Below are positions 11,029 to 42,006 of a stretch of DNA of 64,000 nt, piece after piece (the stretch's first letter is position 1; each line of letters starts with the position of its first letter). Below the pieces are notes generated by a model, which was not told the DNA's origin, made no database searches, and saw only the letters and a program-made list of their open reading frames with translations. Origin of the DNA: a bacterium (GTDB lineage: Bacteria; Electryoneota; Electryoneia; Electryoneales; Electryoneaceae); the NCBI GenBank assembly GCA_963675295.2, contig CAXXKJ010000002.1, forward strand, positions 1,696,001-1,760,000, in the 5' to 3' direction. The position numbers were made by a program, and so were the translations under genes.

Positions 11029-11374
11029 ATCTCATGTATGGGTAGCTTTGCATACTTAGGAGAGCCAAATGGACTCCAAACCTGTGGCACAACAGATCGA
11101 TTTGATGGATTACAGCGCCGGAACTGGTTTCATAGCTTCTGGATCGCACTAAACAGACGCTGTGGTTGTCGCTAAAGATACAGTCACTTTCACAACATGG
11201 AGATCAACTGAATTTTTCTGGAATCAAATACTTTCAATGGTTTACCCCATTGTTGCATTCTATATTCCACCTAATTGGAAACGTGTGATGTTCATTGAGT
11301 ACCAATCGTTTTTCCTCATCGAAAGGGTTCATGTTCGCATGAACCGGGGTCCACATGCACTGAAGGGAGGAAGT

Positions 11375-13231
11375 ATGAAAGGCGTTCTCACATTCTTGTT
11401 GATCCTCGCAGTTCCGCTGCTGGCCGTTGCCACTCCGTATACTCAGATCGGCTACGAAACCTACGAGACACCGAATTGGGTCGAGAACTATGTCGACTGG
11501 ACGCGTACGTCCGATGGTGGCGTGGCGGCATTGTACTACGCCTATGAGTGGAACTCGTACTACTATCCCGGCATCTTCGGCTTCCAGCTGTTCAATGCCA
11601 CTGGTGAAATGCGGTTGGAATGGACGGATGATTTCGTTGGGTCTGACGATTGGCCGGACGCGATCTGTGAAATGCAGGATGGTTCATTCGCCATGTTTTT
11701 CTGTGAATGGAGCACGGAAAGCGTGGACGTTCGCCTGGTAGATCCGACAGGGAACGAGCTCGATCCGATGACGATCGATCTGGGCTTCGCGCCGCGTGAC
11801 CTGCATGTCTATCCGATCCCATTGGCCGCGGGTGGCGGGTTGATGCTGGCGGTGAACCCCTCGGTTGGTGATTACTGGCACTTGGTGCGTGTCTCCAGCG
11901 ACTTTAATGTGGTGTACGATGTGTCCACCGCGTTAGACGATGGCAAACGTCTGATCATGCACCTGCTGGGTGACGGCGTGCTCGGCATGTTCGGCTACAA
12001 CGATGGCCCGTGCCTGTACAAGGCGAACTTCGCGGATGGCTCGCCGGTCGGGTTCAACCGTTTCGCGGCGGCTGACTACAGCAACATCCATCTCGCGGAA
12101 CGGCTGACACCCTCTCTGTTCGCCATGGTGTATTCCAGCAACAGCGTAAACTTTATCCTCAAGCTGGTGCGGGCAAACGGCAACCCGGTCGCGACACTCG
12201 AGCTGAACGGTATCGACGATGTCGCCGGAGTCTTCCTGAATGGCGAAGGGGGCGTGTTTGTGCTGGGTGACCAGCGTACAGATCCGGCACTTACCTGGGC
12301 GACCGTTCTCCAGTCGTACGACAACCAGGGAACCAGGTTGTGGACGCAGTATGTCGACCTCGGTCTTGAGCTGCCGAACCAGGAGCAGTGGTCGAACAGT
12401 GTCCGGCCGCTGGATGCGTGGAAGCTCCCGAACGGGCAGCTCCTGGTGGCAGAGTTGCGTGAATACCTGCCGCCGGATCCGGCAATGGTCTGGCCGATGG
12501 AACGGGACATCGCCTTCCACCGAATGGGTGTCGACAACGATCTGTCCGCTGTCATTGACCTGCAACTGCAGAGCGAAAGGGCGAGTGGATCTCGTGGGCA
12601 GGTCAGAGAAATCCCACTGAAGATCTGGCATCAGTCGGACTCTCCAGTCAATGTGGACGTCTGGTTTGACTGGTCGTGGACGATGGAAGATCCAAACGAT
12701 CCGTACGCCCTCCCATGGTATGTGCACAACACCGAACCCGCGCAGAGTGTGACACTGCTTCCTGGCGAAGTGTATTACGATCCGGAATTCGAGTACGTCA
12801 TCCCGGACCTTCCGGATAACGCCAGGTACAACGATGTGGCGATTCGTTACAACGTCGGGCACTATCCGGATGTGATCTGGTCGTCTGACTATTTCACGTC
12901 ATACATCTCGGGGAATGAACCCGCCGGGAACACGGAGGCCGCCGTTCACGCCAACGAGCTGCCGGACGCGTACGAACTGGCGTCGGTGTACCCGAACCCG
13001 TTCAATCCGACGACGACTGTCGGCGTGACGCTGCCTCAGACGGCGGAGCTGTCGGTCACGGTACATGACGTGCTCGGTCGTCAGGTCGCGCAGTTGGCGC
13101 AAGGCCAGTTTCGTGCCGGTGCGCACCGGTTCGTGTTTGACGGGTCGAATCTCGCGAGCGGCGTGTATTTTGTCCATGCGACGGTGCCTGGTGAGCTGAA
13201 CGCGGTGCAGAAAATGGTGCTGATGAAGTAA
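11375..13231 (+). CDS. Secreted hypothetical protein with T9SS CTD
   Basis: ATG 11375 after GGGAGG; signal peptide MKGVLTFLLILAVPLLAVA; C-terminal VYPNPFNPTT...LASGVYFV...KMVLMK. Confidence 0.8.
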   Translation: MKGVLTFLLILAVPLLAVATPYTQIGYETYETPNWVENYVDWTRTSDGGVAALYYAYEWNSYYYPGIFGFQLFNATGEMRLEWTDDFVGSDDWPDAICEMQDGSFAMFFCEWSTESVDVRLVDPTGNELDPMTIDLGFAPRDLHVYPIPLAAGGGLMLAVNPSVGDYWHLVRVSSDFNVVYDVSTALDDGKRLIMHLLGDGVLGMFGYNDGPCLYKANFADGSPVGFNRFAAADYSNIHLAERLTPSLFAMVYSSNSVNFILKLVRANGNPVATLELNGIDDVAGVFLNGEGGVFVLGDQRTDPALTWATVLQSYDNQGTRLWTQYVDLGLELPNQEQWSNSVRPLDAWKLPNGQLLVAELREYLPPDPAMVWPMERDIAFHRMGVDNDLSAVIDLQLQSERASGSRGQVREIPLKIWHQSDSPVNVDVWFDWSWTMEDPNDPYALPWYVHNTEPAQSVTLLPGEVYYDPEFEYVIPDLPDNARYNDVAIRYNVGHYPDVIWSSDYFTSYISGNEPAGNTEAAVHANELPDAYELASVYPNPFNPTTTVGVTLPQTAELSVTVHDVLGRQVAQLAQGQFRAGAHRFVFDGSNLASGVYFVHATVPGELNAVQKMVLMK

Positions 13232-13249
13232 GCGTGTGCAGATTCAGAC

Positions 13250-13482: not shown

Positions 13483-14700
13483 ATGGACACCACCTTTTTT
13501 GCGCCGGCAGAGGTCTACGGCGACGCCGAACTGCGCCATCAGCGTGAGTTAATCCGTTCGGTGCCGATGCTGGAAATCTTACTCAACTCCGTTCATGTCA
13601 GCGTTCTGGTGCTCAACAATCTCCGTCAGATCGTGTACTACAACAAGGTTTTCTACGATCTCGTGCACGCTCTTGGCACAGACGAAGTGTATGGCAGACG
13701 GCCTGGCGACGTTTTTCGTTGTATCCACGCGAAGGAGCTGCCGAGCGGTTGCGGCACGACCGAATTCTGCCGCACCTGCGGCGCGGTAAAGGCCATCCTC
13801 GATTCGCAGAAGGGGGCTAGCCGCCAGGAAGAATGCCGTATCATGACGCAGAAAGACGTCGAGGTCAACGCGTTGGACGTGCGCGTCTGGTCAACGCCGT
13901 TTGAATACCAGGACGTTCCATTTACCATCCTCTCGCTGGTCGATATCAGCAACGAGAAACGCCGGACCGCGCTGGAACACATCTTCTTCCACGACATCAT
14001 GAACGCTGCAACGAGTGTTCTCGGTTACGCCTCGATGATGCGGTTCGATGAAGAAGCGAACCCGGAGAATCTCGGTGTGCTCGAGGAGAGTGTGTCGCTG
14101 CTCATCGACGACATCGCGGCGCAACGGGATCTCAAGTACGCCGAACAGGGCGAGTTGCAGGTCGATGTAAAGCAGCACAATAGCGGTACGATTCTGGATA
14201 GTCTCTTCACCCGTTTCCGGCATCAGTTCAACGCTGAGGGACGCGAGCTGCAGCTGGACAGCAAGATTGACCGAGTCGAATTTGAGACTGATTTTAGTTT
14301 GCTGAACCGTGTGCTCGGCAACATGGTGAAAAATGCGTTCGAAGCAACGGCGAAGGGGCAGGCTGTGCGTGTGGGCTGCCGTAAATACCGGAACCACCTG
14401 GAGTTCTGGGTGAACAATCCAACAGCGATACCTCGCAACCATCAGCTGCAAGTGTTCAATCGATCCTTCTCAACCAAGGGGAACGGGCGCGGGTTGGGCA
14501 CGTACAGCATGCGTCTGCTGACGGAAAACTACCTCAACGGCCGCCTCAGTTTCGTCACCTCGAAAGAACAGGGCACGACCTTTTCCGCGTACCTGCCGAT
14601 CCGCTTCGCCGACCACAGCAACGGATGGCGGGACGGGATTCCGACGTATCCGATAGGCGACCGTAGCGTGGCGGGACACGAAATACCCCGCAGCGGATAG
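13483..14700 (+). CDS. Cytoplasmic sensor histidine kinase with Cys-rich PAS-like input domain
   Basis: H-box FFHDIMN, N-box NMVKNAFEA, G-box FSTKGNGRGLG; motif CIHA..SGCGTTEFCRTC. Confidence 0.85.
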   Translation: MDTTFFAPAEVYGDAELRHQRELIRSVPMLEILLNSVHVSVLVLNNLRQIVYYNKVFYDLVHALGTDEVYGRRPGDVFRCIHAKELPSGCGTTEFCRTCGAVKAILDSQKGASRQEECRIMTQKDVEVNALDVRVWSTPFEYQDVPFTILSLVDISNEKRRTALEHIFFHDIMNAATSVLGYASMMRFDEEANPENLGVLEESVSLLIDDIAAQRDLKYAEQGELQVDVKQHNSGTILDSLFTRFRHQFNAEGRELQLDSKIDRVEFETDFSLLNRVLGNMVKNAFEATAKGQAVRVGCRKYRNHLEFWVNNPTAIPRNHQLQVFNRSFSTKGNGRGLGTYSMRLLTENYLNGRLSFVTSKEQGTTFSAYLPIRFADHSNGWRDGIPTYPIGDRSVAGHEIPRSG

Positions 14701-14736
14701 CCACGGGGTGAATTGTTGTTGTTGCGCTTTATGCGG

Positions 14737-15051
14737 TCAGTCGATATAAAACCTTTTACGGTCCAAGCCAAGCGCGTCCAGAATTTCTTCCGCGGTACAG
14801 TCGCCACAATCTGACCACACGCGGTATTTCTTCTGTTCTTCTTCCCAGATGAAATACAAGACTGTCGAGCCCGCACACTGCCCGGGTGTATAGCAGACCG
14901 GGCAACGGTTCATGCCGATGCGGTAGTCCTTTTCGTACGACCAGAATGTGTAGCCGCTTTCGATCAGCTTGCCGACGACATACTTGCAATCCTTAACGAC
15001 GTCAGCGGGTCTTCTTTCGGGCTTCTTCTTTGCTAATCTGTCGAACATCAC
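14737..15051 (-). CDS. Small stand-alone primase-type Zn-binding-domain-like protein (C)
   Basis: CPVC...DCGDCTAEEILDALGLD; start overlaps the upstream stop (GTGA). Confidence 0.65.
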   Translation of the reverse strand: MMFDRLAKKKPERRPADVVKDCKYVVGKLIESGYTFWSYEKDYRIGMNRCPVCYTPGQCAGSTVLYFIWEEEQKKYRVWSDCGDCTAEEILDALGLDRKRFYID

Positions 15052-15542
15052 CGCCTCCCGGAGCTGGGATCACGCCGGTTCAGCAGTGCTTGGCGGTCTT
15101 TCTCCTTCTGGCGCTGCTGCGCACTACGCTCCTTATCGTAGTTCCGATCCAGCATCATCAGGTAAAGATCAGCCATCTTGAAGTCTTCATCCGTCATTTT
15201 GCTGCGTTCCTGCCAGTATGCCTGCTGGTCGAATTCCGCATGCAACAGGTTTTCGTTGTAGCCCAGGCACTCGCAGAAGTCGGATTCGGTCAGACCGCAG
15301 GGCACGCGCCCGTAGCGTTGCAGCTTGATCTTGCGCTTTTTCCAATCGTACGTAAGCCCCCAGGAGCAGTCGCGGCGATGGCGGCAGTAGTTGTTGAGGC
15401 AGAACGGGCACGACAAGGCGATGCCGCCCGCTTCGAAGTTGTGCCACCAGAGTCCGGCGTCGTTCGCCGCCTGAAGCAAGTCATTGGCGACGTTCTGGAC
15501 GACCTCGACGTCTGGCAGTTCTTTGATGAACAGCTTTTTCAT
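15048..15542 (-). CDS. Small Cys-rich protein with primase-type Zn-binding-domain-like motif and charged tail (B)
   Basis: ATG 15542 after AAAAGGA; CPFC...KIKLQ...PCGLTESDFCECLGYNENLL. Confidence 0.6.
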   Translation of the reverse strand: MKKLFIKELPDVEVVQNVANDLLQAANDAGLWWHNFEAGGIALSCPFCLNNYCRHRRDCSWGLTYDWKKRKIKLQRYGRVPCGLTESDFCECLGYNENLLHAEFDQQAYWQERSKMTDEDFKMADLYLMMLDRNYDKERSAQQRQKEKDRQALLNRRDPSSGRR

Positions 15543-15828
15543 GGCGGTTCCTTTTGTTGTTGTTGCGGTGGGATGGTAGAGGAGGGGTGAAGCCTTTGAC
15601 GTGGTTGCCATAGCAGACATTCATGTCAAGGCCCAATTCTTTGAGGATCACTGTTTCGCTACAACCGTTGAAGCACGTGAGGACTAACCTGCTATTGCCG
15701 GTATGCCACTCGCCTTCGAGTTCGTTTCCGCAGTGTGGGCACTTCGCAAAGAAGCCGTCGTACACATAATGCGGATCACAACCCATGATTGATAGCATGA
15801 CACCAATCAGCCGGATAGCATAATTCAC
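15481..15828 (-). CDS. Small stand-alone primase-type Zn-binding-domain-like protein (A)
   Basis: GTG after GGGGGG; DGFFAKCPHC...LTCFNGCSETVILKELGLD. Confidence 0.6.
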   Translation of the reverse strand: MNYAIRLIGVMLSIMGCDPHYVYDGFFAKCPHCGNELEGEWHTGNSRLVLTCFNGCSETVILKELGLDMNVCYGNHVKGFTPPLPSHRNNNKRNRHEKAVHQRTARRRGRPERRQ

Positions 15829-15947
15829 TTTATTCCCCCCATGTCAAGTAGGACAACAACAACAAGTTGTAGCTTACAGTACCTGGTGAGTAAGTACAAT
15901 ACATACAAAGAGTTATGATAAACTCTATGTATATATGTAGTTACACT

Positions 15948-17792
15948 CTAGAAGGGCACCGACTCACCCGAATTGTTGTTGTTGCTCTTCTTGTCCTGCC
16001 TTTCGGGTAGGTCGTATGTGCCCCGCGAGACGCACACGAGAAGTCCTTCGGCAGTCATGCGTTTCAGTACCCGGCTGCAGTAGGCGTACGAAATCCCGGT
16101 CGCAGCCACGATATCGGTCAGGCACATGGCCTTCTTCTCGATCCCCAGCACGTCGATGATCTTGCGCCGGGACCCTTCGACCGACGGCTGGTCTTCGTCG
16201 ATCTGACCGGTGATCTGCCATCCGGTGTGTTCAAGTGGGTCCTCTTCGTCGATCTCACGTTTGAATTCCATCCGGTGCCGGGCTTCGTCGATATCACGAC
16301 CGGTGACAAACAATTCGGCTTCGTCAGCACCGCGCTTGCGGCGCATGACAAGGATGGTATCAGCAGCACCGGAAAGACCGAAGCTGCCACTGATCTCGAC
16401 CAGTGGATCGGCTTCGTCAGTAGCCTTGCGGGTGTGGTGGACAAGGCAGATGCAGACCTTGTGCTTCAGGGCGAGGGTCTGCAATGCGGCAGCGACTTGC
16501 GTGTCGTAGTCGTACAGCGACTGCTGTTTCTCCTGTGGTTCACGCCAGCGTCCAAAGGTGTCGATCACAATCAGCTTCGGGTTGTCGGCCTGCCGCAGCC
16601 AGTAGTCCAGCTGCGAAAGGGACGGTGCCTGCGCAATAGTAAAAAAGAGTCTTTTGAGGCTTTCCCTTTCCAGATACATCCCGCCAAGCTGTTTCATCCT
16701 GTACTGGATACGGCGTTCACTGTCTTCCAGTGACACAATCAGCACCTCGCCAGGGTCGCACTTGCCGAGCCCAAGGGCCCGCTGGCCGGAAGCGACCGCC
16801 ATGCCCATCTCAAGGGCGATCCACGACTTGCCGGACTTCGGTTTGCCCGCGAAGATGCACAATCCCTCGCAGATCAGGCCGGGCACGACCCACACCGGCG
16901 GGTCCATCACCTTTGCCATCAGATCCTGACCGCAGTACGAAGAATTCGATGGTAGCAGCTGTGCTTGCGTCGTTTCCGGTACTTCCTTGGCCCGGGTCGC
17001 GACTGGCGGAAGACTGCGGGATACCTGGGACACGATTTCTTCCAATTCTTCCGGCTTGTGACCCAGTGCGAACCAGTCGGTAACATCCTTCACCCCCTTG
17101 AACGGCGGCAGACAGAGGACAAGAGCAGCAAGAGCAACAAGACTGTCTGCTACCATCTTCTGATGTTTGAGCCCGGGCTCGTCACCATCGCAGAGCACCA
17201 CCATCTTGCGGTCCTTGAAATACGAGGCATGGTTACGACCCCACTTCCCAGCGCCGCCGTGGTTGCAGGTAGCAACAAAACCGTGCTTGCGAAGGGTCTC
17301 GACGTCCTTTTCGCCTTCGACCACGTAGATGTACTGGTCCATCGGAGCACGCAGGCACTCCGGCAGGTTGTAAGGGATCGGCTTGACCTTCTTCAGGTTC
17401 CAGACCCACTGGGATTCGTCGTCCGGGTCGATACGGCGGGCGAGGAACTTCTTCCCGGGCTTCCGCACGATCTGGTACAACAGCACATTGTCTTCGGTGT
17501 AGTAGTCGTACACCGCTTCGTAGTCTTTCGACAGACCGTACCCTAGCATCTCGGGGGTGATGCCGAGGTGCGATTCGATATCGCGGCTGTCGCATCCAGC
17601 GTGGCACTTGAACTTGATCTTGCCGAACGGGGTGACATAGACAGAAAGCGACGGGTTCTTGTCGCCGCGTCCCTTGCCGTGTGTTGGCAAAGGACAACAG
17701 CAGACAAAGCCATCGCCTTTGATGTCTCCGGGGTTCAAGCCTTCCTGTTTGCACAGGGACCAGGCGTTGAACAGGTTGTCTGTCAGGTTCAT
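15948..17792 (-). CDS. Phage/plasmid primase-helicase (Zn finger, Toprim, AAA_25/RepA-like helicase, wHTH)
   Basis: CPLPTH..DKNPSLSV..KCHAGC; VVEGEKD and DGDEPG (Toprim); Walker A GKPKSGKS, Walker B LIVIDTF, VHHTRK and ISGSFGL; C-terminal HTH. RBS AAAGGAG. Confidence 0.9.
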   Translation of the reverse strand: MNLTDNLFNAWSLCKQEGLNPGDIKGDGFVCCCPLPTHGKGRGDKNPSLSVYVTPFGKIKFKCHAGCDSRDIESHLGITPEMLGYGLSKDYEAVYDYYTEDNVLLYQIVRKPGKKFLARRIDPDDESQWVWNLKKVKPIPYNLPECLRAPMDQYIYVVEGEKDVETLRKHGFVATCNHGGAGKWGRNHASYFKDRKMVVLCDGDEPGLKHQKMVADSLVALAALVLCLPPFKGVKDVTDWFALGHKPEELEEIVSQVSRSLPPVATRAKEVPETTQAQLLPSNSSYCGQDLMAKVMDPPVWVVPGLICEGLCIFAGKPKSGKSWIALEMGMAVASGQRALGLGKCDPGEVLIVSLEDSERRIQYRMKQLGGMYLERESLKRLFFTIAQAPSLSQLDYWLRQADNPKLIVIDTFGRWREPQEKQQSLYDYDTQVAAALQTLALKHKVCICLVHHTRKATDEADPLVEISGSFGLSGAADTILVMRRKRGADEAELFVTGRDIDEARHRMEFKREIDEEDPLEHTGWQITGQIDEDQPSVEGSRRKIIDVLGIEKKAMCLTDIVAATGISYAYCSRVLKRMTAEGLLVCVSRGTYDLPERQDKKSNNNNSGESVPF

Positions 17793-17990
17793 CGGTACTC
17801 CTTTGGTTGGTGGTACTGCGGAGAGTGTGAGGACGCTGGCAGGGAGCCAGCAGGGCGTACAAGATAGCGTGTTGTCTTTACGTTGTCAATACCCAACAGC
17901 GCAACAACAACAATTTGCTGTTGCCGCCACCTCCCTGCGGTCGTATTTTCCCTCACTTCTGATTGGGTCCTGGTTAACGCGGAGTAGAGG

Positions 17991-20018
17991 ATGAAGACGT
18001 GGTCACTTCTTGGCGTCCTGACGCTGTTGTTTGCCACCGTGGCATTCGGACAGGCGGTCGAACGCACGCATGATATTGTCCCGGAAGACTATTTCACGCA
18101 GGTATTTCTCACCGATTGCGCGGTATCCCCGGACGGTGAGCTGACGGCATTTGTCGATTACCGTTGGGACAAGGTGAATGATCGCCGCTCGCGCGACTTG
18201 TGGGTGGTGAACAACGAGACGCTGGCGACTACGCGTCTCACGTTTGACCCGGGCAACGAGTTCAGCCCGCAGTGGTCCCCGGACAGCAAGTGGGTCTATT
18301 TCCTCGGTCACATGAGCCGTGGCGGCGACATGACCAAGGCACCGTACGATGGCAGCTCGCAGGTCTGGCGTGTCAACCCGGACGGCAACGGCCTGATGCC
18401 GGTGACCAGCGTGCCGGGCGGGATTTACGGGTACGAGCTGTCGGCGGACGGCAAAACGTTGTATTACACCCTCGCGAAAGAGATCAGCGTCGGCGAGTGG
18501 CAGGACATGAAGGCCACGTACGCCAATGTCACCTACGCCGAGGGCACGAACGAAGTCTGCGAGCTGTGGAAGCTGAACCTGGTGACGTGGCGTGCGGACA
18601 AGCTGTTCGCGCCCGAGCTGCACATCCATGAGTTTTCCGTCTCGCCGAACGAGCAGAAGGTTGCGATGATCACTACCGAGAGCGGCAAACTGATCGAGCT
18701 CGAGGGGTGGTCCAATGTGACGATCTACGATGCCGAGACCGGCGACTCGTATGACCTGTACGACCAATTGTGGCGTGACGATGCGCCGTCCCCGCACGGG
18801 TGGCTCGGCGAACCAACGTGGAACGATTCCGGCAACAAGCTGGCGTTCACCGTCGACTTTGACGGCTATCCGGCCGAGGTAATTGTCTCCGACTTTTCGG
18901 AACGTGCGGCGAATCTGATGCGCATGCCGCGTCCGGAGATGGTGCACGTCGCCGGGCATATCCACTGGCTGCCGGAGAGTGACGAGGAGATTGCGTTTGT
19001 CGGGCACAACCTCGCCCGTCAGCGGGTCTACAGCGTGGAGCTGGGTACCGGTGACTACAAGACGTTGACCAACGGCGACGTGGTCATCGACAACTTCGGG
19101 TTCACCGGTGACGGGGAAGATCTGGTCGCGATCCAGAGCACGTTGACCTACTACCAGGATCTCGTCTACTACAAGGGCAACAAGTCAACGCGGATCACGA
19201 AGCTGAATCCGCAGGTGGACACATGGAAGCTTCCGCAGATCCAGATCGTCGAGTGGGAAGGTGCGAACGGCGACATGGTCTCCGGCATTCTTGAGCTTCC
19301 GCCGGACTATGAGCCGGGCCAGAAGCTGCCGCTGCATCTCACGTTGCACGGTGGCCCGACCGTTGCCGAACCGTATTGCTTCCAGTTGTGGATTTACGGA
19401 CGCGCGTCCTTCGCCGCCAAGGGCTGGGCGATGCTGTCGCCGAATTATCGTGGCTCGCTGGGGTACGGTGACGAGTTCCTCACCGACCTGATCGGTCACG
19501 AGAACGATTGGGACGTGAAGGACATCATGGCCGGCGTTGACTATCTCATCGCGGAAGGTATTGTCGACGAGGACAAGATGGGTGTCAGCGGCTGGAGTAA
19601 CGGCGGATTCCTGACCAACGCGCTGATCGCGTCGAACCGTTTCAAGGCGGCGAGCACCGGCGCTGGTGTGCTTGACATGACGATGCAGCTGGTGATGGAG
19701 GATACTCCTGGCCACGTGGTCAACTTCATGCAGTCGTTGCCGTGGGAGAATCCGGAAGCGTACATCCACGGATCCCCGATCTTCACGTTCCACGATGGCA
19801 TCAAGACGGCGGTGTTGATCCACGTCGGCGAAAATGATCCGCGAGTTCCGCCCGCGCACAGTGTCGGCCTGCATCGCATGCTGAAGCATTACCTCGGCGT
19901 CAACAGCGAATTGATCATCTACCCGGGTGCCGGTCACAACCTGACCAAGTACACGCACCGTCTCGCGAAAGCGAAGTGGGACCACGCGTGGTTCGACAAA
20001 TACGTGCTCGGGAAGTAA
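17991..20018 (+). CDS. S9 family (prolyl oligopeptidase/acylaminoacyl peptidase-like) serine peptidase
   Basis: Signal peptide, PD40-like propeller (PQWSPD), HGGP, NYRGS, nucleophile GWSNGG, D(PRV) and GAGH. Confidence 0.9.
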   Translation: MKTWSLLGVLTLLFATVAFGQAVERTHDIVPEDYFTQVFLTDCAVSPDGELTAFVDYRWDKVNDRRSRDLWVVNNETLATTRLTFDPGNEFSPQWSPDSKWVYFLGHMSRGGDMTKAPYDGSSQVWRVNPDGNGLMPVTSVPGGIYGYELSADGKTLYYTLAKEISVGEWQDMKATYANVTYAEGTNEVCELWKLNLVTWRADKLFAPELHIHEFSVSPNEQKVAMITTESGKLIELEGWSNVTIYDAETGDSYDLYDQLWRDDAPSPHGWLGEPTWNDSGNKLAFTVDFDGYPAEVIVSDFSERAANLMRMPRPEMVHVAGHIHWLPESDEEIAFVGHNLARQRVYSVELGTGDYKTLTNGDVVIDNFGFTGDGEDLVAIQSTLTYYQDLVYYKGNKSTRITKLNPQVDTWKLPQIQIVEWEGANGDMVSGILELPPDYEPGQKLPLHLTLHGGPTVAEPYCFQLWIYGRASFAAKGWAMLSPNYRGSLGYGDEFLTDLIGHENDWDVKDIMAGVDYLIAEGIVDEDKMGVSGWSNGGFLTNALIASNRFKAASTGAGVLDMTMQLVMEDTPGHVVNFMQSLPWENPEAYIHGSPIFTFHDGIKTAVLIHVGENDPRVPPAHSVGLHRMLKHYLGVNSELIIYPGAGHNLTKYTHRLAKAKWDHAWFDKYVLGK

Positions 20019-35721: not shown

Positions 35722-36348
35722 TTAGTCCTTCCACGTCCGCTTGATGAAGCCATCCCGTCCCGATCCCACCTTGTACGCGTTGTAGTGCAACGGGTTCTTC
35801 TTGTAGTAGTCCTGGTGGTAATCCTCGGCCTTGTAGAATTCGGTGACCGGCAGGACTTCGGTGACGATCGGATCGTCAAACTTGCCCGATTCTTCCAGCT
35901 CCCGCTTCGATTCCTCCGCCAACCGTTTCTGCTCCTCGTTGTGGTAGAAGATCGCAGTTTTGTAATGATCGCCACGGTCGGCGAACTGGCCGTACTTGTC
36001 GGTCGGGTCGATGTTTCGCCAGTAGGTGTAGAGAAGCTTCTCGTAGCTGACGACGGACGGATCGTAGGTCACCTGCGCCGATTCACGATGCCCGGTGCGG
36101 CCGTTGACCACATCCTTGTAGCTGGGATTCTTCTCGCTGCCGCCGGTGAAGCCGGCGACGACGTCAATTACGCCGTCCAGCTGCTGAAACGGCGGTTCCA
36201 TGCACCAGAAGCAGCCACCGGCAAAGGTGGCGACGGCCAGGTTCTTATCGTTCACTTGAACATCCTGAGCATGAGTATTTTTGGGAGTAGTCATCACGAC
36301 GATCAAGCTGAACGCAATGAGGGTCACTTGCAAAAGTTGGCGAATCAT
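35722..36348 (-). CDS. msrA: Peptide-methionine (S)-S-oxide reductase, exported
   Basis: FAGGCFWC, GHRE, AEDYHQDY; signal peptide. Confidence 0.93.
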   Translation of the reverse strand: MIRQLLQVTLIAFSLIVVMTTPKNTHAQDVQVNDKNLAVATFAGGCFWCMEPPFQQLDGVIDVVAGFTGGSEKNPSYKDVVNGRTGHRESAQVTYDPSVVSYEKLLYTYWRNIDPTDKYGQFADRGDHYKTAIFYHNEEQKRLAEESKRELEESGKFDDPIVTEVLPVTEFYKAEDYHQDYYKKNPLHYNAYKVGSGRDGFIKRTWKD

Positions 36349-36629
36349 CCTGTATCCTCGTTCATCAAGACTTCATTCATTTCTACGCCTGAGGGTGAAA
36401 GCTGGTTTCATCCGATGCGGGAACTACGAGACCGGGTACCAGCATAGTGTTGAAGTTTTCCACCAGGATCACTGTATTATGTTGCTCATGCGGGACTGTG
36501 TTTGGTCAGTTCGTTATCCAGGCCCGTCGTTCATCAATCAGCTGCCGTTAGTCTGGGTGTGCTGGAGCCGACCACCAGAAAGAACGATGAAGTAGCTTTG
36601 GCATCAGGCAAGAACGATCTGGGAGATAC

Positions 36630-38996
36630 ATGCTACTCGCAGTTGCTGGCTGTTTTGCTTTGGCGGTGATCTCTCCCGGTTTGTACCGCATTTTCGGGAA
36701 GCGGTCTGGCCCACTCATGGCACTCCTCCCGGCCAGCGTGTTTCTCTTTCTGCTCTCGAAGCTGCCGTCGCTTACTGAATCATCCAGTGAAGGACCGAGT
36801 GCGCTGTTGGAATCCTATACGTGGGTACAACAGTGGGACATCGGGCTTTCCTTCCGTTTGGATGGATTATCCTTACTTTTTTCCTTGATGATCACCGGAA
36901 TAGGTGCTCTGGTTTTCGCATATTCCGGTTCCTACATGGCCAAGCATGGCAGTAGCGGTCGATTCTATCCTCTACTTGCAGCATTTATGGGGGCAATGTT
37001 GGGCCTTGTCCTCGCGGATGACCTGATCGCAATGTTCGTCTTCTGGGAGTTGACCAGCATTACCTCCTATCTCCTGATCGGATTTGACTATGACAAATTG
37101 CAATCGCGGAAATCGGCATTACAGGCTTTGCTTGTCACCGGCGCTGGTGGTTTGGCGCTGCTGGCTGGTTTCATTTTGTTGATACAGGCTTCCGACGCGA
37201 GAACATTCACTGAGTTATTGTCAGGAAGCTTGAATCTTACATCACACTCTTTGTATCCAGGCATATTGATTTTGATTGCCCTGGGCGCATTTACGAAAAG
37301 TGCCCAGTGGCCATTCCATTTCTGGCTTCCATCAGCAATGGTTGCTCCAGCACCTGTCAGCACCTACCTCCATTCAGCGACGATGGTTAAAGCGGGGGTA
37401 TACCTGTTGGCAAGGCTTCAACCGGTATTGTCGGGAACTCCGTTCTGGGAAAACCTGTTTGTCGTGGCAGGCTTGATGACTCTGCTTACGGGTGCCGTCA
37501 TGACACTATGGCAGAGCGATCTAAAAAGCCTGCTCGCCTATTCCACGGTTGCGGCGCTTGGAACAATGGTCTTGTTGATCGGGATTGGTGGCAAATATGC
37601 TGCTGTGGCACTGGGAGTCTATATCGCGGCGCACGCCTTATATAAAGCCGCCTTATTTCTCATCTCTGGCATTATCGATATGCAAACTGGCACCAGGGAT
37701 ATCAACAAGTTGGGGGGACTTTTCAAGAAATTGCCGGTCACTGGTACGGCAGCTTTACTGGCAGGGTTGTCATTCGCGGGTCTTCCCCCTGTTACCGGGT
37801 ATATTGCAAAAGAACTGTTATACAAATCGACCTGGTCTGCGCCGTACGGACTTGTGCTCAGCCTCTTGGTCGTTACCGCCAAAGCAATTCTGTTTTACAC
37901 AGCTTACCAGGTTGCCATAAAACCCTTCTTCGGAAAAATGCTGACAGAACCCAAGTCTGATCGTAAAGCACCCATGTTCATGGTGCTCGGTCCGATCTTG
38001 CTTGCGGTGTCTGGTTTCCTGCTCGGTGTGTTCGGGACTGGTGCTACTGGGTTTTTCGAGTCGGTTGGCAGTGCAGTTGCAAACGCCCGGGTCACTGCTG
38101 ATTTATCGCTGTGGCATGGCCTGATCCCAGCATTCTGGTTATCAGTGGTGACTGTGCTACTGGGCTTTGCTTTGATGTCATTGAAGCGTTTCATCCTGCG
38201 GTCACGAAACCCCTTTGATACCCTTGGCCGATTCGGACCAACTGCCATCTACAACGCCTGGCTAGAGGGTACAATCTGGCTTGGACACTGGCAGACAGCA
38301 CTTATTCAGAATGGTCGTCTCAGAATCTACATCCTGATTGTTTTAAGCGTGATTCTGGTGCTCGGCGGGGGAACTTATCTTCTGAACCTGGAGGCATCGA
38401 GTATTCAGTTGAAGTGGGATGGAATTCGTTTCTATGAGCTGCTGATCGCTATTATCACTCTTTCAGGCGCACTTGGAACAGTACTATCGAAAGGAAGGTT
38501 GACCGCAATCGTAACGCTTGGTGTTGCTGGATTGGGCGTGGCTTTGATTTTCATGTTCTTTGGCGGGCCTGACCTTTCCGTCACCCAGATATCAGTTGAA
38601 ACCTTGAGTGTCCTCCTGCTGGTTGTGGCGTTGTACAGTCTGCCGAAATTCCGCCGTTTAAACTCAACTGGAACAAGGGCGCGTGATGTGACTGTCGCTG
38701 TCCTGACTGGTATGTTTTTATCGGTACTGACTCTGGATTCGTTCACCGGGAACCGTGTGTCCGAGTTGGGCCGATGGTTTGCCGAGCAATCATATCTGGC
38801 GGGGAAGGGGCGCAATGTTGTTAATGTGATCTTGGTGGATTTCCGTGCCATGGACACATTGGGTGAGATCACAGTGGTGGCAATTGCTGCGATTGGGGTG
38901 TTGTCTCTACTCCGGGTTCGCAGTGGTCGAGATGGAACGGCTCCGCAAAATCTGCCTGAGCTTCCGGTATGTGAAGACAAGGAGGCCAGCCGATGA
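36630..38996 (+). CDS. mrpA: Mrp Na+/H+ antiporter subunit A
   Basis: [49 protein letters not shown]. Confidence 0.93.
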
Positions 38997-39403
38997 AATC
39001 ACTGATTCTGCAGATGATGGTGAGAGCGCTTCTCCCATTGCTACTTCTTTTCAGTTTGTATCTGCTTCTGCGTGGACACAACAGCCCTGGCGGTGGGTTT
39101 GCCGGTGGTTTGATCGCGGGAGCTGTCTTCGTCCTCTTCGCGTTGGTATTCGGGGTCGAGGAGACCCGTCGAGCATTGCATGTAGAACCCATATCCATCA
39201 TGGTATCCGGTCTCGCCATAGCGGTTGTGAGCGGGTTATACGGATTGATATGGGGTGATGCTTTCCTCCAGGCATGGTGGTGGGACCGGGAGATCGCTCT
39301 TCTCAAACACTTCGGCACTCCACTGGTTTTTGATGTCGGCGTTTACCTGACGGTGTTGGGTGCTGTACTCGTTGTGGTGCTCACTCTGATCGAGGAGGAA
39401 TAA
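38993..39403 (+). CDS. mrpB: Mrp antiporter subunit B
   Basis: [14 protein letters not shown]; FDVGVYL. Confidence 0.92.
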
Positions 39404-39753
39404 TGCTTGTACTATCCCTCCTTATCGGAGGTCTTGCTGCGGCGGGAATTTACCTGATGCTGCGTCGAAGCGTTGCGAAACTGATTTTCGGTATCGCCCT
39501 GCTTGGACATGCGGTGAACCTGATCGTGTTTTCATCGGGTGGATTGATGCCTGCTGGATCACCCATAATCAGTGAGAACGCTAAGATCCTGCTTGAGCCA
39601 CATCCGGACCCGCTTCCCCAGGCTCTGGTGCTGACAGCAATTGTCATTGGCTTCAGCGTGCAGGCGTTTGCCATCGTTTTAATCAAACGGGCTCATCAGG
39701 AAGCCGAAACGGACGATTTTGACCAGATGGACACAACGGAGCGGGATGAATGA
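39403..39753 (+). CDS. mrpC: Mrp antiporter subunit C
   Basis: DPLPQALVLTAIVIGF. Confidence 0.93.
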   Translation: MLVLSLLIGGLAAAGIYLMLRRSVAKLIFGIALLGHAVNLIVFSSGGLMPAGSPIISENAKILLEPHPDPLPQALVLTAIVIGFSVQAFAIVLIKRAHQEAETDDFDQMDTTERDE

Positions 39754-41264
39754 ATACTGTCGCGCTTCTTCTCACACTTCCCGTGCTGATCCCGCTATCT
39801 GCTGCCATACTCTGCATTGTCGTCAGGTCGAACCGAGCGGCTCAACGCATATTCAGCATTACTGGATTAGTTGCACTATTCTCTTCGTCAGTTTGGTTGC
39901 TGGCTTCCGTTCAGAACGAACCAGTAATTGCGACTCAACTCGGTGGTTGGGTTGCACCTTATGGCATCACTTTTGTCGCGGATCGGTTCAGTGCATTAAT
40001 GGTTGTCGTCTCATCCTTGATGGGGCTTGCCGTCGGTATATACTCTCTCGCTGATCTTGATCGGGATCGTGAACACTACGGTCATCACAGCCTGTTTCAC
40101 ATTTTACTCATGGGCGTGAATGGCGCCTTTCTGACGGGTGACTTGTTCAATTTGTATGTCTGGTTCGAAGTCATGTTGATCGCATCGTTTGTGCTCACCA
40201 CGCTGGGTGGGCGTCGCGGTCAATTGGAAGGTGGGTTGAAATACATGACATTGAACCTTCTGGGATCCATGGTCTTTCTGTTGTCGATAGGCCTGTTGTA
40301 CAGCCAGACGGGCACCTTGAATATCGCCAAGCTTCATCTGATCCTAGCCCAAGTCCAGGGAAACGCAATCCTGCTAACCGTTGCTGTCTTGCTTATGATT
40401 GCATTCGGGATTAAAGCTGCGGTATTTCCATTGTTTATGTGGCTCCCAACCTCTTACCATACTCCACCAACTGCTGTTTCTGCTATTTTCGCTGGTCTTC
40501 TTACAAAAGTGGGTGTATATGCTCTTATCCGCACTTTCACCATGCTTTTCGTCTTCAATTTGACATGGACTCACACGATACTATTATGGATTGCGGGTTT
40601 CACAATGGTATCAGGTGTACTTGGCGCAATGATTCAGGGATCCATACGTCGAATACTTAGTTTCCACATTATTAGTCAGATCGGATATATGCTTCTTGGA
40701 TTAGCCCTGTTTACAAGCGCGGGAATTGCCGGAGCGGTGTTTTATATCATCCATCACATTGTGGTGAAGACAAACCTGTTTTTGATCGGGGGATTGATTG
40801 CCCGAATCCGTGGAACAAGTGTACTCAGCAGAATCGGGGGGCTGCTTAAGGACAGGCCTGTACTTGCGGTGTTGTTTCTCATTCCCGGATTGTCGCTGGC
40901 GGGCATTCCTCCGCTAAGTGGTTTTTGGGCAAAGTACGCAGTAATCAAAGCCGCTCTGGATGCGGAAAGCTGGATCATTGCAGGGGTAGCACTCCTGGTT
41001 GGACTGCTGACCTTGTTTTCCATGATGAAGATCTGGTCGGAGGCATATTGGAAACCGCAGCCGGAGAACTCGGTTTCAACTCCTGGACCAATGCCTGTTT
41101 CGACACGTCTTCTTGGATATGCGCCTGTGATCATGCTTGCAATGGTGACGTTGGCCATTGGTTTCTACCCGGGTTGGTTGCTGGATCAAGCCAACGCTGC
41201 TGCATCCCAGTTGCTGGACACAGAGAGTTACCTTCATGCCGTACTGGGAGGGACGATACCTTGA
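39750..41264 (+). CDS. mrpD: Mrp antiporter subunit D
   Basis: GDLFNLYVWFEVML, KAAVFPL, LTKVGVY, AGIPPLSGF. Confidence 0.93.
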   Translation: MNTVALLLTLPVLIPLSAAILCIVVRSNRAAQRIFSITGLVALFSSSVWLLASVQNEPVIATQLGGWVAPYGITFVADRFSALMVVVSSLMGLAVGIYSLADLDRDREHYGHHSLFHILLMGVNGAFLTGDLFNLYVWFEVMLIASFVLTTLGGRRGQLEGGLKYMTLNLLGSMVFLLSIGLLYSQTGTLNIAKLHLILAQVQGNAILLTVAVLLMIAFGIKAAVFPLFMWLPTSYHTPPTAVSAIFAGLLTKVGVYALIRTFTMLFVFNLTWTHTILLWIAGFTMVSGVLGAMIQGSIRRILSFHIISQIGYMLLGLALFTSAGIAGAVFYIIHHIVVKTNLFLIGGLIARIRGTSVLSRIGGLLKDRPVLAVLFLIPGLSLAGIPPLSGFWAKYAVIKAALDAESWIIAGVALLVGLLTLFSMMKIWSEAYWKPQPENSVSTPGPMPVSTRLLGYAPVIMLAMVTLAIGFYPGWLLDQANAAASQLLDTESYLHAVLGGTIP

Positions 41265-41734
41265 TTTATCTACTGATTCACGCATTCATCGTTATCGTCT
41301 GGTTGCTGCTCAGCGGTAGTTTCACCCTGTGGAATGCGCTTCTGGGGCTTGTGATTGGTTACGTACTGGTTGCCATTGCTTCTCCAGCTGAGGATAAGCG
41401 AAGCTATGTTAAGCGTCTTCCCGCTGCTATAAATCTATTTATATATTTTATTTTTGAGTTAATCAAAGCTAATCTGGTTGTCGCATGGGAGATGATTGAT
41501 CCAAGGCATACGATGAATCCTGGAATAGTGTCAATACCTCTGGATTTACAGTCGCCAGTTGCAATAACATTGCTTGCAAACCTTATAACCCTGACTCCAG
41601 GAACGTTGACCCTGGAAGTCACTGAAGACAGGAAAACACTGTTTGTTCATGCGATGTACATTTACGATCAACAGAAGTTCAGGGATTCTATTAAACGTGG
41701 GTTCGAACGCAGAGTGATGGAGGTGTTTGAATGA
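41261..41734 (+). CDS. mrpE: Mrp antiporter subunit E
   Basis: TTG start overlapping the mrpD stop; LANLITLTPGTL, LFVHAM. Confidence 0.9.
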   Translation: MIYLLIHAFIVIVWLLLSGSFTLWNALLGLVIGYVLVAIASPAEDKRSYVKRLPAAINLFIYFIFELIKANLVVAWEMIDPRHTMNPGIVSIPLDLQSPVAITLLANLITLTPGTLTLEVTEDRKTLFVHAMYIYDQQKFRDSIKRGFERRVMEVFE

Positions 41735-42006
41735 CGCTGGAGGCTTTTGCAATCTACGTTATTTTGCCGATTTTGGGCATTTCCCTGGTGCTGACGGTCA
41801 TCAGGCTGTTCTTAGGACCAAGTCTTGCTGATCGAGTCGTAGCTTTGGATTTAATGAGCATGCTGGGCATCAGCCTTGTGACGGTATTCTCCCTGGCGTT
41901 CAGCCGCACAGTTTTTTTCGACATTGCGATCGTCATCGCGTTGGTGTCGTTCATGACCACGATTGCGTTTGCTCGATTCCTTGAGAAACGAAACCAGACA
42001 AAATGA
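41731..42006 (+). CDS. mrpF: Mrp antiporter subunit F
   Basis: GPSLADRVVALD; AFARFLE. Confidence 0.92.
   Translation: MTLEAFAIYVILPILGISLVLTVIRLFLGPSLADRVVALDLMSMLGISLVTVFSLAFSRTVFFDIAIVIALVSFMTTIAFARFLEKRNQTK

Follow-up and report, generated by a model that had tools for sequence, protein, structure and literature searches.

This analysis concerns a small island in a 64,000-nt stretch of DNA, hereafter called the window, that covers positions 1,696,001 to 1,760,000 of contig CAXXKJ010000002.1 (assembly GCA_963675295.2) from a bacterium of the Electryoneaceae; all coordinates below are window positions. The island is strain-specific, measures about 3.27 kb (14655..17920, no strand assigned) and lies between a histidine-kinase-like gene and an S9 peptidase gene, both of which were identified by Pfam. 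Its four genes form one minus-strand operon, which encodes a primase-helicase of 614 amino acids (aa; 15948..17792) and the three small open reading frames (ORFs) A (115 aa; 15481..15828), B (164 aa; 15048..15542) and C (104 aa; 14737..15051), and five copies of a (CAA)4 repeat are distributed among these genes. A preliminary description, made from the letters of the sequence alone, had regarded the three small ORFs as free-standing, diverged paralogs of the zinc-binding domain (ZBD) of the primase itself; all four ORFs, and every peptide that it quoted, are present at the positions it gave. As judged from sequence comparison, A is clearly and C is probably a homolog of the primase ZBD family, and B belongs to a separate rare family; A and C are tentatively interpreted below as accessory or regulatory zinc modules for priming.

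The large gene is assigned by sequence as an intact ZBD-Toprim-helicase gene of the mobile-element type with predicted zinc ligands, and its reading as a primase-helicase in the preliminary description was confirmed by family matches and by the invariance of its Toprim and P-loop residues. PHROG 239 (‘DNA primase/helicase’) matches aa 77-491 with an expectation value (E) of 1.1e-36, Pfam AAA_25 is matched with E 9.3e-27 (94 bits against a cut-off of 27), and the helicase part is related to RSF1010 RepA (PDB 1g8y, E 1.1e-7). The predicted N-terminal ZBD (aa 1-85; 17538..17792) is followed by a Toprim catalytic domain (approximately aa 151-240; 17073..17342), a RepA/DnaB-like helicase core (aa 296-458; 16419..16907) and a C-terminal winged-helix DNA-binding domain (approximately aa 541-603; 15984..16172), all on the minus strand. 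The Toprim domain is matched weakly by Pfam Toprim_2 (aa 156-236, E 0.059) and by PHROG 6088 and PHROG 849, the matches of which span aa 136-271, and residues E159, G160, D163, D202 and D204 of its acidic motifs are invariant in an alignment of the primase with four relatives. The P-loop residues G316, P318, K319, G321, K322 and S323 (GxPKxGKS) are likewise invariant among these five proteins, as are C33, P34, H38, C63 and C67 of the ZBD, of which C33, H38, C63 and C67 are the likely ligands. The ZBD consensus of 94 relatives, ...CPAHDDRNPSLSI...KCHAGCSTEDILAALGL, is of the Cys-His-Cys-Cys type, which is presumed here to be DnaG-like. The primase ZBD matched no zinc-finger family of Pfam or NCBIfam at E ≤ 1, and neither Zn_ribbon_DnaG (PF01807) nor Zn_Ribbon_Prim (PF08273) was matched at E ≤ 1 by the primase, A, B or C. 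The winged-helix tail is assigned from weak helix-turn-helix (HTH) matches, namely MarR_2, HTH_IclR, AbiEi_4 and HTH_24 at E 0.0025-0.048, all below the curated cut-offs, and an ArsR/SmtB-type HTH at E 0.0016. The protein carries the Toprim and RecA-fold helicase domains of the bifunctional primase-helicases of PHROG 239 and, by its sequence, their N-terminal four-ligand ZBD.

Pairwise BLASTP among the primase ZBD, A, B and C gave nothing significant (the best pair, ZBD and A, had E 0.099, and the other five pairs had E of at least 0.29 or no alignment), and the hhalign alignments among A, the B family and C are collinear with P values of only 0.013-0.17. Profiles were more informative. The first profile was built from eight primase ZBDs, namely that of the neighbouring primase-helicase, three from its paralogs within the genome and four from further genomes of the family, and was searched against 50,453 six-frame ORFs of at least 50 aa from the whole genome (4.8 Mb); the second was built from 94 ZBDs, and the global hhalign score of each ORF was compared with those of 60 composition-preserving shuffles.

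ORF A, read on the minus strand from a GTG start preceded by GGGGGG, is a clear ZBD-family homolog by profile, hhalign, shuffle and phmmer comparisons. Its zinc domain, at approximately aa 16-74, contains Cys30, Cys33, Cys52 and Cys56 (CxxC/CxxxC), and its basic tail overlaps the start of B by 62 nt. With the first profile, A ranks 5th among the 50,453 ORFs, next after four training primases (21.6 bits, E 4.4e-4), and reaches E 2.5e-8 when only the three candidates are searched; the 94-sequence profile gives 21.3 bits. In hhalign, A matches the ZBD profile at 96.2% (P 2.7e-9) over 54 columns that cover both knuckles and the helix, with 21-24% identity across the aligned columns, and its global score of 39.8 compares with 2.1 ± 2.1 for the shuffles and was reached by none of the 60. 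In the reciprocal direction, a phmmer search with A alone against the 16,702 ORFs of 160 related primase loci (80 on metagenome and 80 on viral contigs, all 25-45% identical) returned 22 matches at E ≤ 1, the best at E 0.0016, and all 22 are long ORFs (365-918 aa; one is a 248-aa fragment at a contig end) at the primase match of their locus. The primase N-terminus of PHROG 6088 is also matched by A, weakly (E 0.012).

ORF C, also on the minus strand, is probably a ZBD-family homolog by the profile, hhalign and shuffle comparisons. It contains Cys50, Cys53, Cys82 and Cys85 (CxxC/CxxC) and ends in ...TAEEILDALGL. In the first-profile search, C is 9th of the 50,453 ORFs (11 bits, E 0.93 genome-wide; E 5.2e-5 among the three candidates only), and the 94-sequence profile gives 9.9 bits. 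The local hhalign match to the ZBD profile (66.7%, P 5.3e-5, 33 columns) includes only the second knuckle and the helix; the global alignment, which is collinear from the first helix via the ‘RCP’ knuckle to ‘...ILDALGL’, scores 21.6 against 2.7 ± 2.0 for the shuffles (z 9.7; reached by 0 of 60). A single-sequence AlphaFold2 model of C, with a predicted local distance difference test (pLDDT) score of 71 and a predicted template modelling (pTM) score of 0.62, shows the order helix, two strands, CxxC knuckle, two strands, CxxC knuckle, helix. Two ESM Atlas leads for C score 0.85 and 0.84, under the lead threshold of 0.9, and the 0.85 lead groups bacterial proteins of 53 aa, every one with PF08273.

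By contrast, ORF B (minus strand) is not detectably related to the ZBD in these sequence comparisons. It is not among the 40 best ORFs with the first profile (E 0.11 and 0.4 bits among the three candidates), scores -1.1 bits with the 94-sequence profile, and gives 0.9% (P 0.06) when its three-member family is compared with the ZBD profile by hhalign; its global score of 0.9 compares with 2.9 ± 2.4 for the shuffles and was reached by 52 of the 60. Two homologs, the alignment with them and the coding score nevertheless mark B, as far as its sequence tells, as a real gene of a separate, rare, conserved Cys-rich family. An exhaustive HMMER search of 1.84 billion representatives returned as homologs P0006 (46% identity, E 1.7e-40) and P0007 (48%, E 8.3e-32), with which B shares invariant C45, C48, C53, C59 and C82; the ‘CEC-LGY’ segment of B, which had been aligned with the ZBD helix in the preliminary description, is unconserved in them. 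P0006 and P0007 are 33% identical to each other and each is found on two contigs, the longest of 1,447 bp; they may sit in tandem on one contig, in which case B-like arrays would be a recurring theme. A word-based search with B returned the query alone, the ESM Atlas gave no usable match, a search for loci related to the B family found none in genome contigs or viral contigs, and 78 other genomes of the phylum yielded one weak 29-residue match (E 0.0023).

The idea that the resemblance to the ZBD is due to chance, with the CxxC pairs being coincidental features of unremarkable small Cys-rich ORFs, is weighed differently for each ORF. It holds in practice for B only, for which the profile bits, the hhalign value and the shuffles all agree, and the lack of significance in every pairwise BLASTP comparison is in its favour. 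For A it is refuted by the genome-wide rank and by the reciprocal matches, every one a long ORF at a primase locus, and for C it is made unlikely by a P of about 5e-5, the z value and the collinear alignment that includes the first CP knuckle. Chance as an account of the whole set is very improbable. The preliminary description had seen a common pattern of helix-G, CPxC, strands, second Cys pair and helix-LG; this pattern is readable in all three ORFs and exceeds chance in A and C, and the hhalign comparison separated the three in the same manner, leaving A as a clear and C as a probable free-standing ZBD relative and removing B.

The three small ORFs are favoured in their annotated frames by coding statistics (0.32 for the domain of A, 0.52 for B and 0.34 for C; 110-codon windows taken from 1,337 long ORFs average 0.29), and Shine-Dalgarno-like sequences lie upstream of all three. 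The B and C proteins are on record as called genes, with 164 aa and 103 aa, respectively. The ATG of C at 15048 overlaps the stop codon of B (TGATG), a translationally coupled arrangement. The start of B is an ATG with an AAGGA ribosome-binding site, and the longest ORF extends to 15620; the frame of B is open upstream to an ATG at that position via a Thr/Pro-rich, linker-like stretch. Within 15484-15620, the last 40 codons of A have a coding score of 0.40 in the frame of B and -0.39 in their own, and about half of this shift is accounted for by the 62-nt overlap with B. A frameshift-linked A-B fusion may exist; counter to this, the homologs of B start at the residue that corresponds to the ATG at 15542.

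The origin of A is not explained by duplication of the adjacent domain. A phmmer search with A (E ≤ 10) matches all 94 collected primase ZBDs, and the ZBD of the neighbouring primase ranks only 90th of the 94 (2.8 bits), which indicates that A is not a recent tandem duplicate; the ‘paralogs of its own ZBD’ of the preliminary description are thus not supported for A. Primases on viral contigs (loci L152, L121, L148, L119 and others) score highest, with a best E of 3e-7 within the ZBD set, and by this sequence criterion A represents a lineage of the domain that is either old or foreign, instead of a local duplicate.

Closeness of A to viral primases raises the alternative that A and C, perhaps together with B, are decoys that compete with the ZBD of a phage, helper or host primase and thereby block or redirect its priming, in which case the locus would be a defence or interference island. 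In addition to the far better agreement of A with viral-contig ZBDs than with that of its neighbour, the island is small and strain-specific, as defence islands often are, and three more primase-helicase elements in the genome are possible partners or targets. However, the higher scores with viral ZBDs may merely reflect closeness to the family consensus, and the layout does not recur among the 160 related loci. The defence models of PADLOC-DB 2.0 were not matched by A or C, and the match of B (13.4 bits) is at chance level; a match of the primase to the DRT DnaG-like model (E 3.2e-4, 17.5 bits) is also regarded as chance level. The decoy alternative is considered improbable on this balance.

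The three further primase-helicase relatives in the same genome are located at G000:C2 1806471-1808408 (+), 2551980-2553815 (-) and 3329335-3331710 (+), with identities of about 55%, 32% and 34%. Next to the first lies a divergent gene for an HNH endonuclease (Pfam HNH, E 2.8e-11), the second has small ORFs downstream, one of which resembles an excisionase-type HTH protein by eye, and the third adjoins ORFs that, also by eye, resemble a tyrosine integrase and a type I restriction enzyme. A search for related loci with the single primase query found none in genome contigs.

The 160 related loci were surveyed for downstream ZBD arrays of the kind that the preliminary description had envisaged, and none was found. 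A primase ORF that bears the same ZBD (E < 1e-5) is present in 93 of the loci, 61 of which have at least 1 kb of downstream sequence. All eight nominally short ORFs at E ≤ 0.1 are 248-296 aa long and coincide with the primase match of the locus concerned; several of them lie at contig ends, and the three that were inspected all begin with the primase N-terminus; the next-best short ORF has E 0.84, and 11 weak ones that were inspected resemble spurious frames. A loose motif scan retained 7 of 15,514 short ORFs, none of which adjoins a primase; one of the seven (L122:1172-1510) looks like a genuine zinc ribbon, 3.5 kb upstream of its primase and with no profile match. What the survey excludes is chiefly genes like A, since ORFs as weak as C would hardly rise above its noise.

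The five (CAA)4 repeats (no strand assigned) are a further feature of the island. Copy 1 (17898..17915), just upstream of the primase promoter, and copy 5 (14711..14728), between the stop codon of C and the terminator, are the right and left arms of a perfect inverted repeat in which all 18 of 18 positions are complementary. Copy 2 (15971..15988; 17 of 18 identical) is within the last codons of the primase gene (KSNNNNS), copy 3 (15850..15867; 15 of 18) is just upstream of the promoter-like site before A, and copy 4 (15552..15569; 15 of 18) is just upstream of the ribosome-binding site of B and within the tail of A. The exact 12-mer CAACAACAACAA has five copies in the window, all within the island, and with one mismatch allowed seven copies are found against 0.23 expected, a count reached in none of 100 shuffles. 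Genome-wide, the 18-mer has three copies with at most one mismatch, all in the island, and 13 matches with at most three mismatches, five of which are in the island. The 13-mer occurs in 8 of 187 loci, all from the genome of the window, and in none of the 160 metagenome and viral loci. Copies 2 and 4 encode runs of Asn near the C-termini of the primase and A, respectively: the primase tail ...KSNNNNSGESVPF is encoded by copy 2 (15970-15989), and copy 4 is read in the A tail as ...RNNNKRN.... The closest relatives of the primase, p2 and the protein of the same-genus genome G027, are without this tail and end in ...GLPKQLN. Directly downstream of the p2 primase and its G027 counterpart there is a conserved inverted repeat of 16-17 nt, GTACCCAAACAA(A/G)CAG... 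(L008:3452-3519 and L011:1420-1487), which could serve that element as a terminator or cis site; it shares its richness in A and C with the (CAA)4 repeat but is not the same sequence.

Two sigma-70-like promoters on the minus strand are predicted from consensus matches at 10 of 12 positions, TTGACA-17-TATCTT upstream of the primase (17861..17889) and TTGACA-16-AATTAT upstream of and overlapping the GTG of A (15820..15847); if the latter were used, A would start at a downstream ATG. A terminator-like hairpin of 10 pairs with a T-rich tail (14685..14709, minus strand), recognised by sequence, ends the operon inside the island. A long-range RNA stem formed by the inverted repeats is unlikely for copy 1, since the predicted promoter is downstream of this copy.

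Copies 1 and 3 are positioned 6-12 nt upstream of the two TTGACA boxes, an arrangement that would be expected if the small proteins were zinc-ribbon regulators of transcription or replication, derived from the ZBD fold and working outside priming, that bind the (CAA)4 repeats as operators to set expression or copy number. The strongly basic tail of A would fit such a function, and primase ZBDs are themselves sequence-reading DNA-binding modules. On the other hand, three of the five repeats are away from the promoters, the winged-helix tail of the primase is an equally good candidate for reading them, and none of the small proteins matches a regulator family in Pfam, PHROG or NCBIfam. A regulatory role of this kind is a possible but unlikely explanation.

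The same arrangement bears on the question of whether A and C have any function. A unit consisting of a repeat, a TTGACA promoter, a ZBD ORF and an Asn-coding repeat occurs twice, once with the primase (copies 1 and 2) and once with A (copies 3 and 4), as would be expected if A were an internally deleted primase copy. A and C could then be decaying, functionless remains of truncated primase genes, left by related elements that had accumulated here earlier, and only the primase, perhaps with B, would matter. That A is an uncalled ORF which overlaps B, that neither A nor C has homologs in the word-based protein search, and that the layout is unique are all in agreement with this. In contrast, A and C have open frames with in-frame coding bias and retain both Cys pairs in spite of the low identity of A, which argues for selection, since neutral decay to such divergence would be expected to break the frame; the translational coupling of C to B and the presence of C on record as a called gene point in the same direction. 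The two ORFs are rather unlikely to be relics.

The borders of the island are defined by comparison with G027, in which the same two flanking genes are about 92 bp apart and the island is missing from the syntenic site. Homology between the window and G027 stops at 14654 (80% identity) and restarts at 17921 (92% identity), and the perfect inverted repeat sits about 56 bp (left) and about 5 bp (right) inside these breakpoints. The 3' end of the histidine-kinase-like gene diverges from its G027 ortholog starting at the left breakpoint (14655-14700), and the kinase terminates in ...PTYPIGDRSVAGHEIPRSG in the window and in ...PTYPISQAG in G027; the insertion has thus apparently replaced the last codons of the gene. 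No integrase, transposase or recombinase ORF or domain was found within 14655-17920 in the ORF list or by Pfam and PHROG, no tRNA was found in the 64-kb window, no attachment-site (att) or target duplication is visible at the junctions against the empty site of G027, and Rfam gave no RNA family at 14000-18500 (E ≤ 1). NCBIfam provided no informative family for the island proteins. The recombinase and the att or target duplication that characterize satellites and integrative islands of the P4-like and phage-inducible chromosomal island (PICI)-like types were accordingly not seen here. An interpretation as a DNA transposon or a miniature inverted-repeat transposable element was rejected, as there is neither a duplication nor a transposase, the repeats lie off the breakpoints, and the 18-mer (at most one mismatch) is confined to the island. 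The island was detected in four DNA sequencing runs, all of one study and three of them from a single sample, possibly the source, with no RNA run listed; the assembled contigs of these runs show no joint across the island, the sole joint stems from a paralogous primase, and they are silent on excision and expression.

The interpretation preferred here, at somewhat short of an even chance, is that A and C are accessory or regulatory zinc modules for priming in the replication module of a mobile element. The island may be a remnant or a minimal replication module of such an element; its five (CAA)4 repeats mark the island ends, both promoter-like sites and the gene ends. The winged-helix tail of the primase, the zinc modules, or both could bind the repeats, which may be its cis-acting sequences for an origin, for priming or for operator function. 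A and C may act in trans on the Toprim core or its template, with or against the core, and could thereby change or limit the sites and the frequency of primer synthesis; the proposal is modelled on DnaG and the gene 4 protein of T7, whose ZBDs can work in trans with the catalytic domain of a neighbouring subunit.

Several observations weigh against this interpretation. A word-based search of 5.8 billion proteins found neither a homolog nor a called protein for A and returned only the query for C, tblastn with A and C as queries found no match among 50,697 phage records, and A, which overlaps B by 62 nt, has apparently never been called as a gene. The model of C found no significant structural neighbour, with a best E of 0.3 in a Foldseek search of the PDB (the DnaG ZBD 1d0q ranks 11th with E 1.2 and a TM score of 0.23) and a best E of 0.07 in BFVD; the model of B, which is poor (pLDDT 47) and unreliable, has the same order of secondary structure as that of C. 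A free-standing ZBD ORF is present at 0 of the 160 related primase loci, no such small ORFs follow the most similar paralog of the genome (55% identity), and the case is weakened by the single known instance of the layout and by the support for only two of the three ORFs. Binding of the repeats by any protein is purely inferential. A predicted complex of primase aa 86-290 with A aa 1-80 scored 0.11 and 0.14 against a mark of 0.32, which speaks neither for nor against binding.

A more elaborate form of the accessory-module interpretation can be drawn, in which the island would be a self-contained mini-replicon. The outer (CAA)4 copies would act as inverted single-strand priming sites comparable to ssiA and ssiB of RSF1010, and primers laid down on the CAA strand would be extended inward over 3.2 kb; A and C, together with B, would serve as interchangeable subunits for template reading that bind the Toprim core in trans and steer it to these repeats, or else as decoys that hold a competing primase away from them. 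This extended scheme has only a slim chance of being correct. Primase ZBDs set primer start sites and work in trans between subunits, so that if A and C are indeed such modules, the island would provide a natural test of whether separate subunits can swap or throttle priming specificity, and of whether mobile elements use ZBD mimics against the replication of one another. With 3.3 kb, four genes and five repeats, it would be cheap to synthesise and test.

Two other regions of the window were noted. A secreted protein (11162-13231) carries a Por_Secre_tail sorting domain (Pfam, E 1.8e-8), and its C-terminal part (12957-13235) matches dozens of loci in genomes of the family at about 70% DNA identity; as predicted from sequence, these matches reflect a large family of type IX-secretion cargo proteins. 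The region 36000-42000 has a lower G+C content (0.48-0.52) and a strongly negative AT skew, and its two large ORFs are Mrp/complex-I-type antiporter subunits (Proton_antipo_M); its composition is thus attributed to membrane proteins and not to a foreign island.

Among known systems, the α protein of the satellite P4 and the pri-rep modules of PICIs combine a primase, a helicase and a C-terminal origin-binding winged helix that recognizes repeated sites kilobases apart (ori/crr iterons in P4). The island resembles these elements in its predicted set of domains and its widely spaced repeats, and in that related primase-helicases of the same genome are found in contexts like those of integrative elements. 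It differs from them by the absence of an integrase, an excisionase, an att duplication and a packaging or capsid-redirecting gene, and the class of its helicase is unlike that of P4 α.

In RSF1010 and other IncQ plasmids, replication from oriV follows a logic in which RepA is the helicase, RepB' the primase and RepC the iteron binder, with the inverted ssiA and ssiB as priming sites. Among solved structures, RepA is the nearest to the helicase core of the island protein, and, like RSF1010, the island unites a helicase, a primase and a DNA-binding domain with short inverted repeats. In contrast to RSF1010, the activities are predicted to reside in one protein, the primase is of the Toprim type instead of the RepB' type, and the (CAA)4 runs are spread over 3.2 kb instead of forming a compact oriV; the resemblance does not imply that the island replicates.

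The closest architectural counterparts are T7 gene 4 and DnaG-type primases, which have an N-terminal ZBD followed by Toprim, and the T7 gene 4 and island proteins add a RecA-fold helicase of the hexameric type in the same polypeptide. The helicase of the island protein is RepA/AAA_25-like, however, and not a close relative of DnaB or gp4, and the protein has an extra winged-helix tail. T7 also produces a ZBD-less isoform and is not known to make additional ZBD-only proteins.

The preliminary description knew of no described system with this layout, a statement that needs partial revision. Stand-alone primase-type Zn-ribbons are reported to accompany the DnaG-like primases of group 2 jumbo phages, and the ribbon is described as the domain that in cellular primases forms one protein with Toprim (Iyer et al. 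2021, PMC7824862), so that the jumbo-phage case is read here as a split primase. Full-text literature searches yielded no description of extra free-standing ZBD genes beside a ZBD-containing primase-helicase, and the jumbo-phage case is the nearest that they gave. Compared with the jumbo phages, the primase of the island keeps its own ZBD and is accompanied by one or two extra ZBD-like genes and an unrelated Cys-rich gene.

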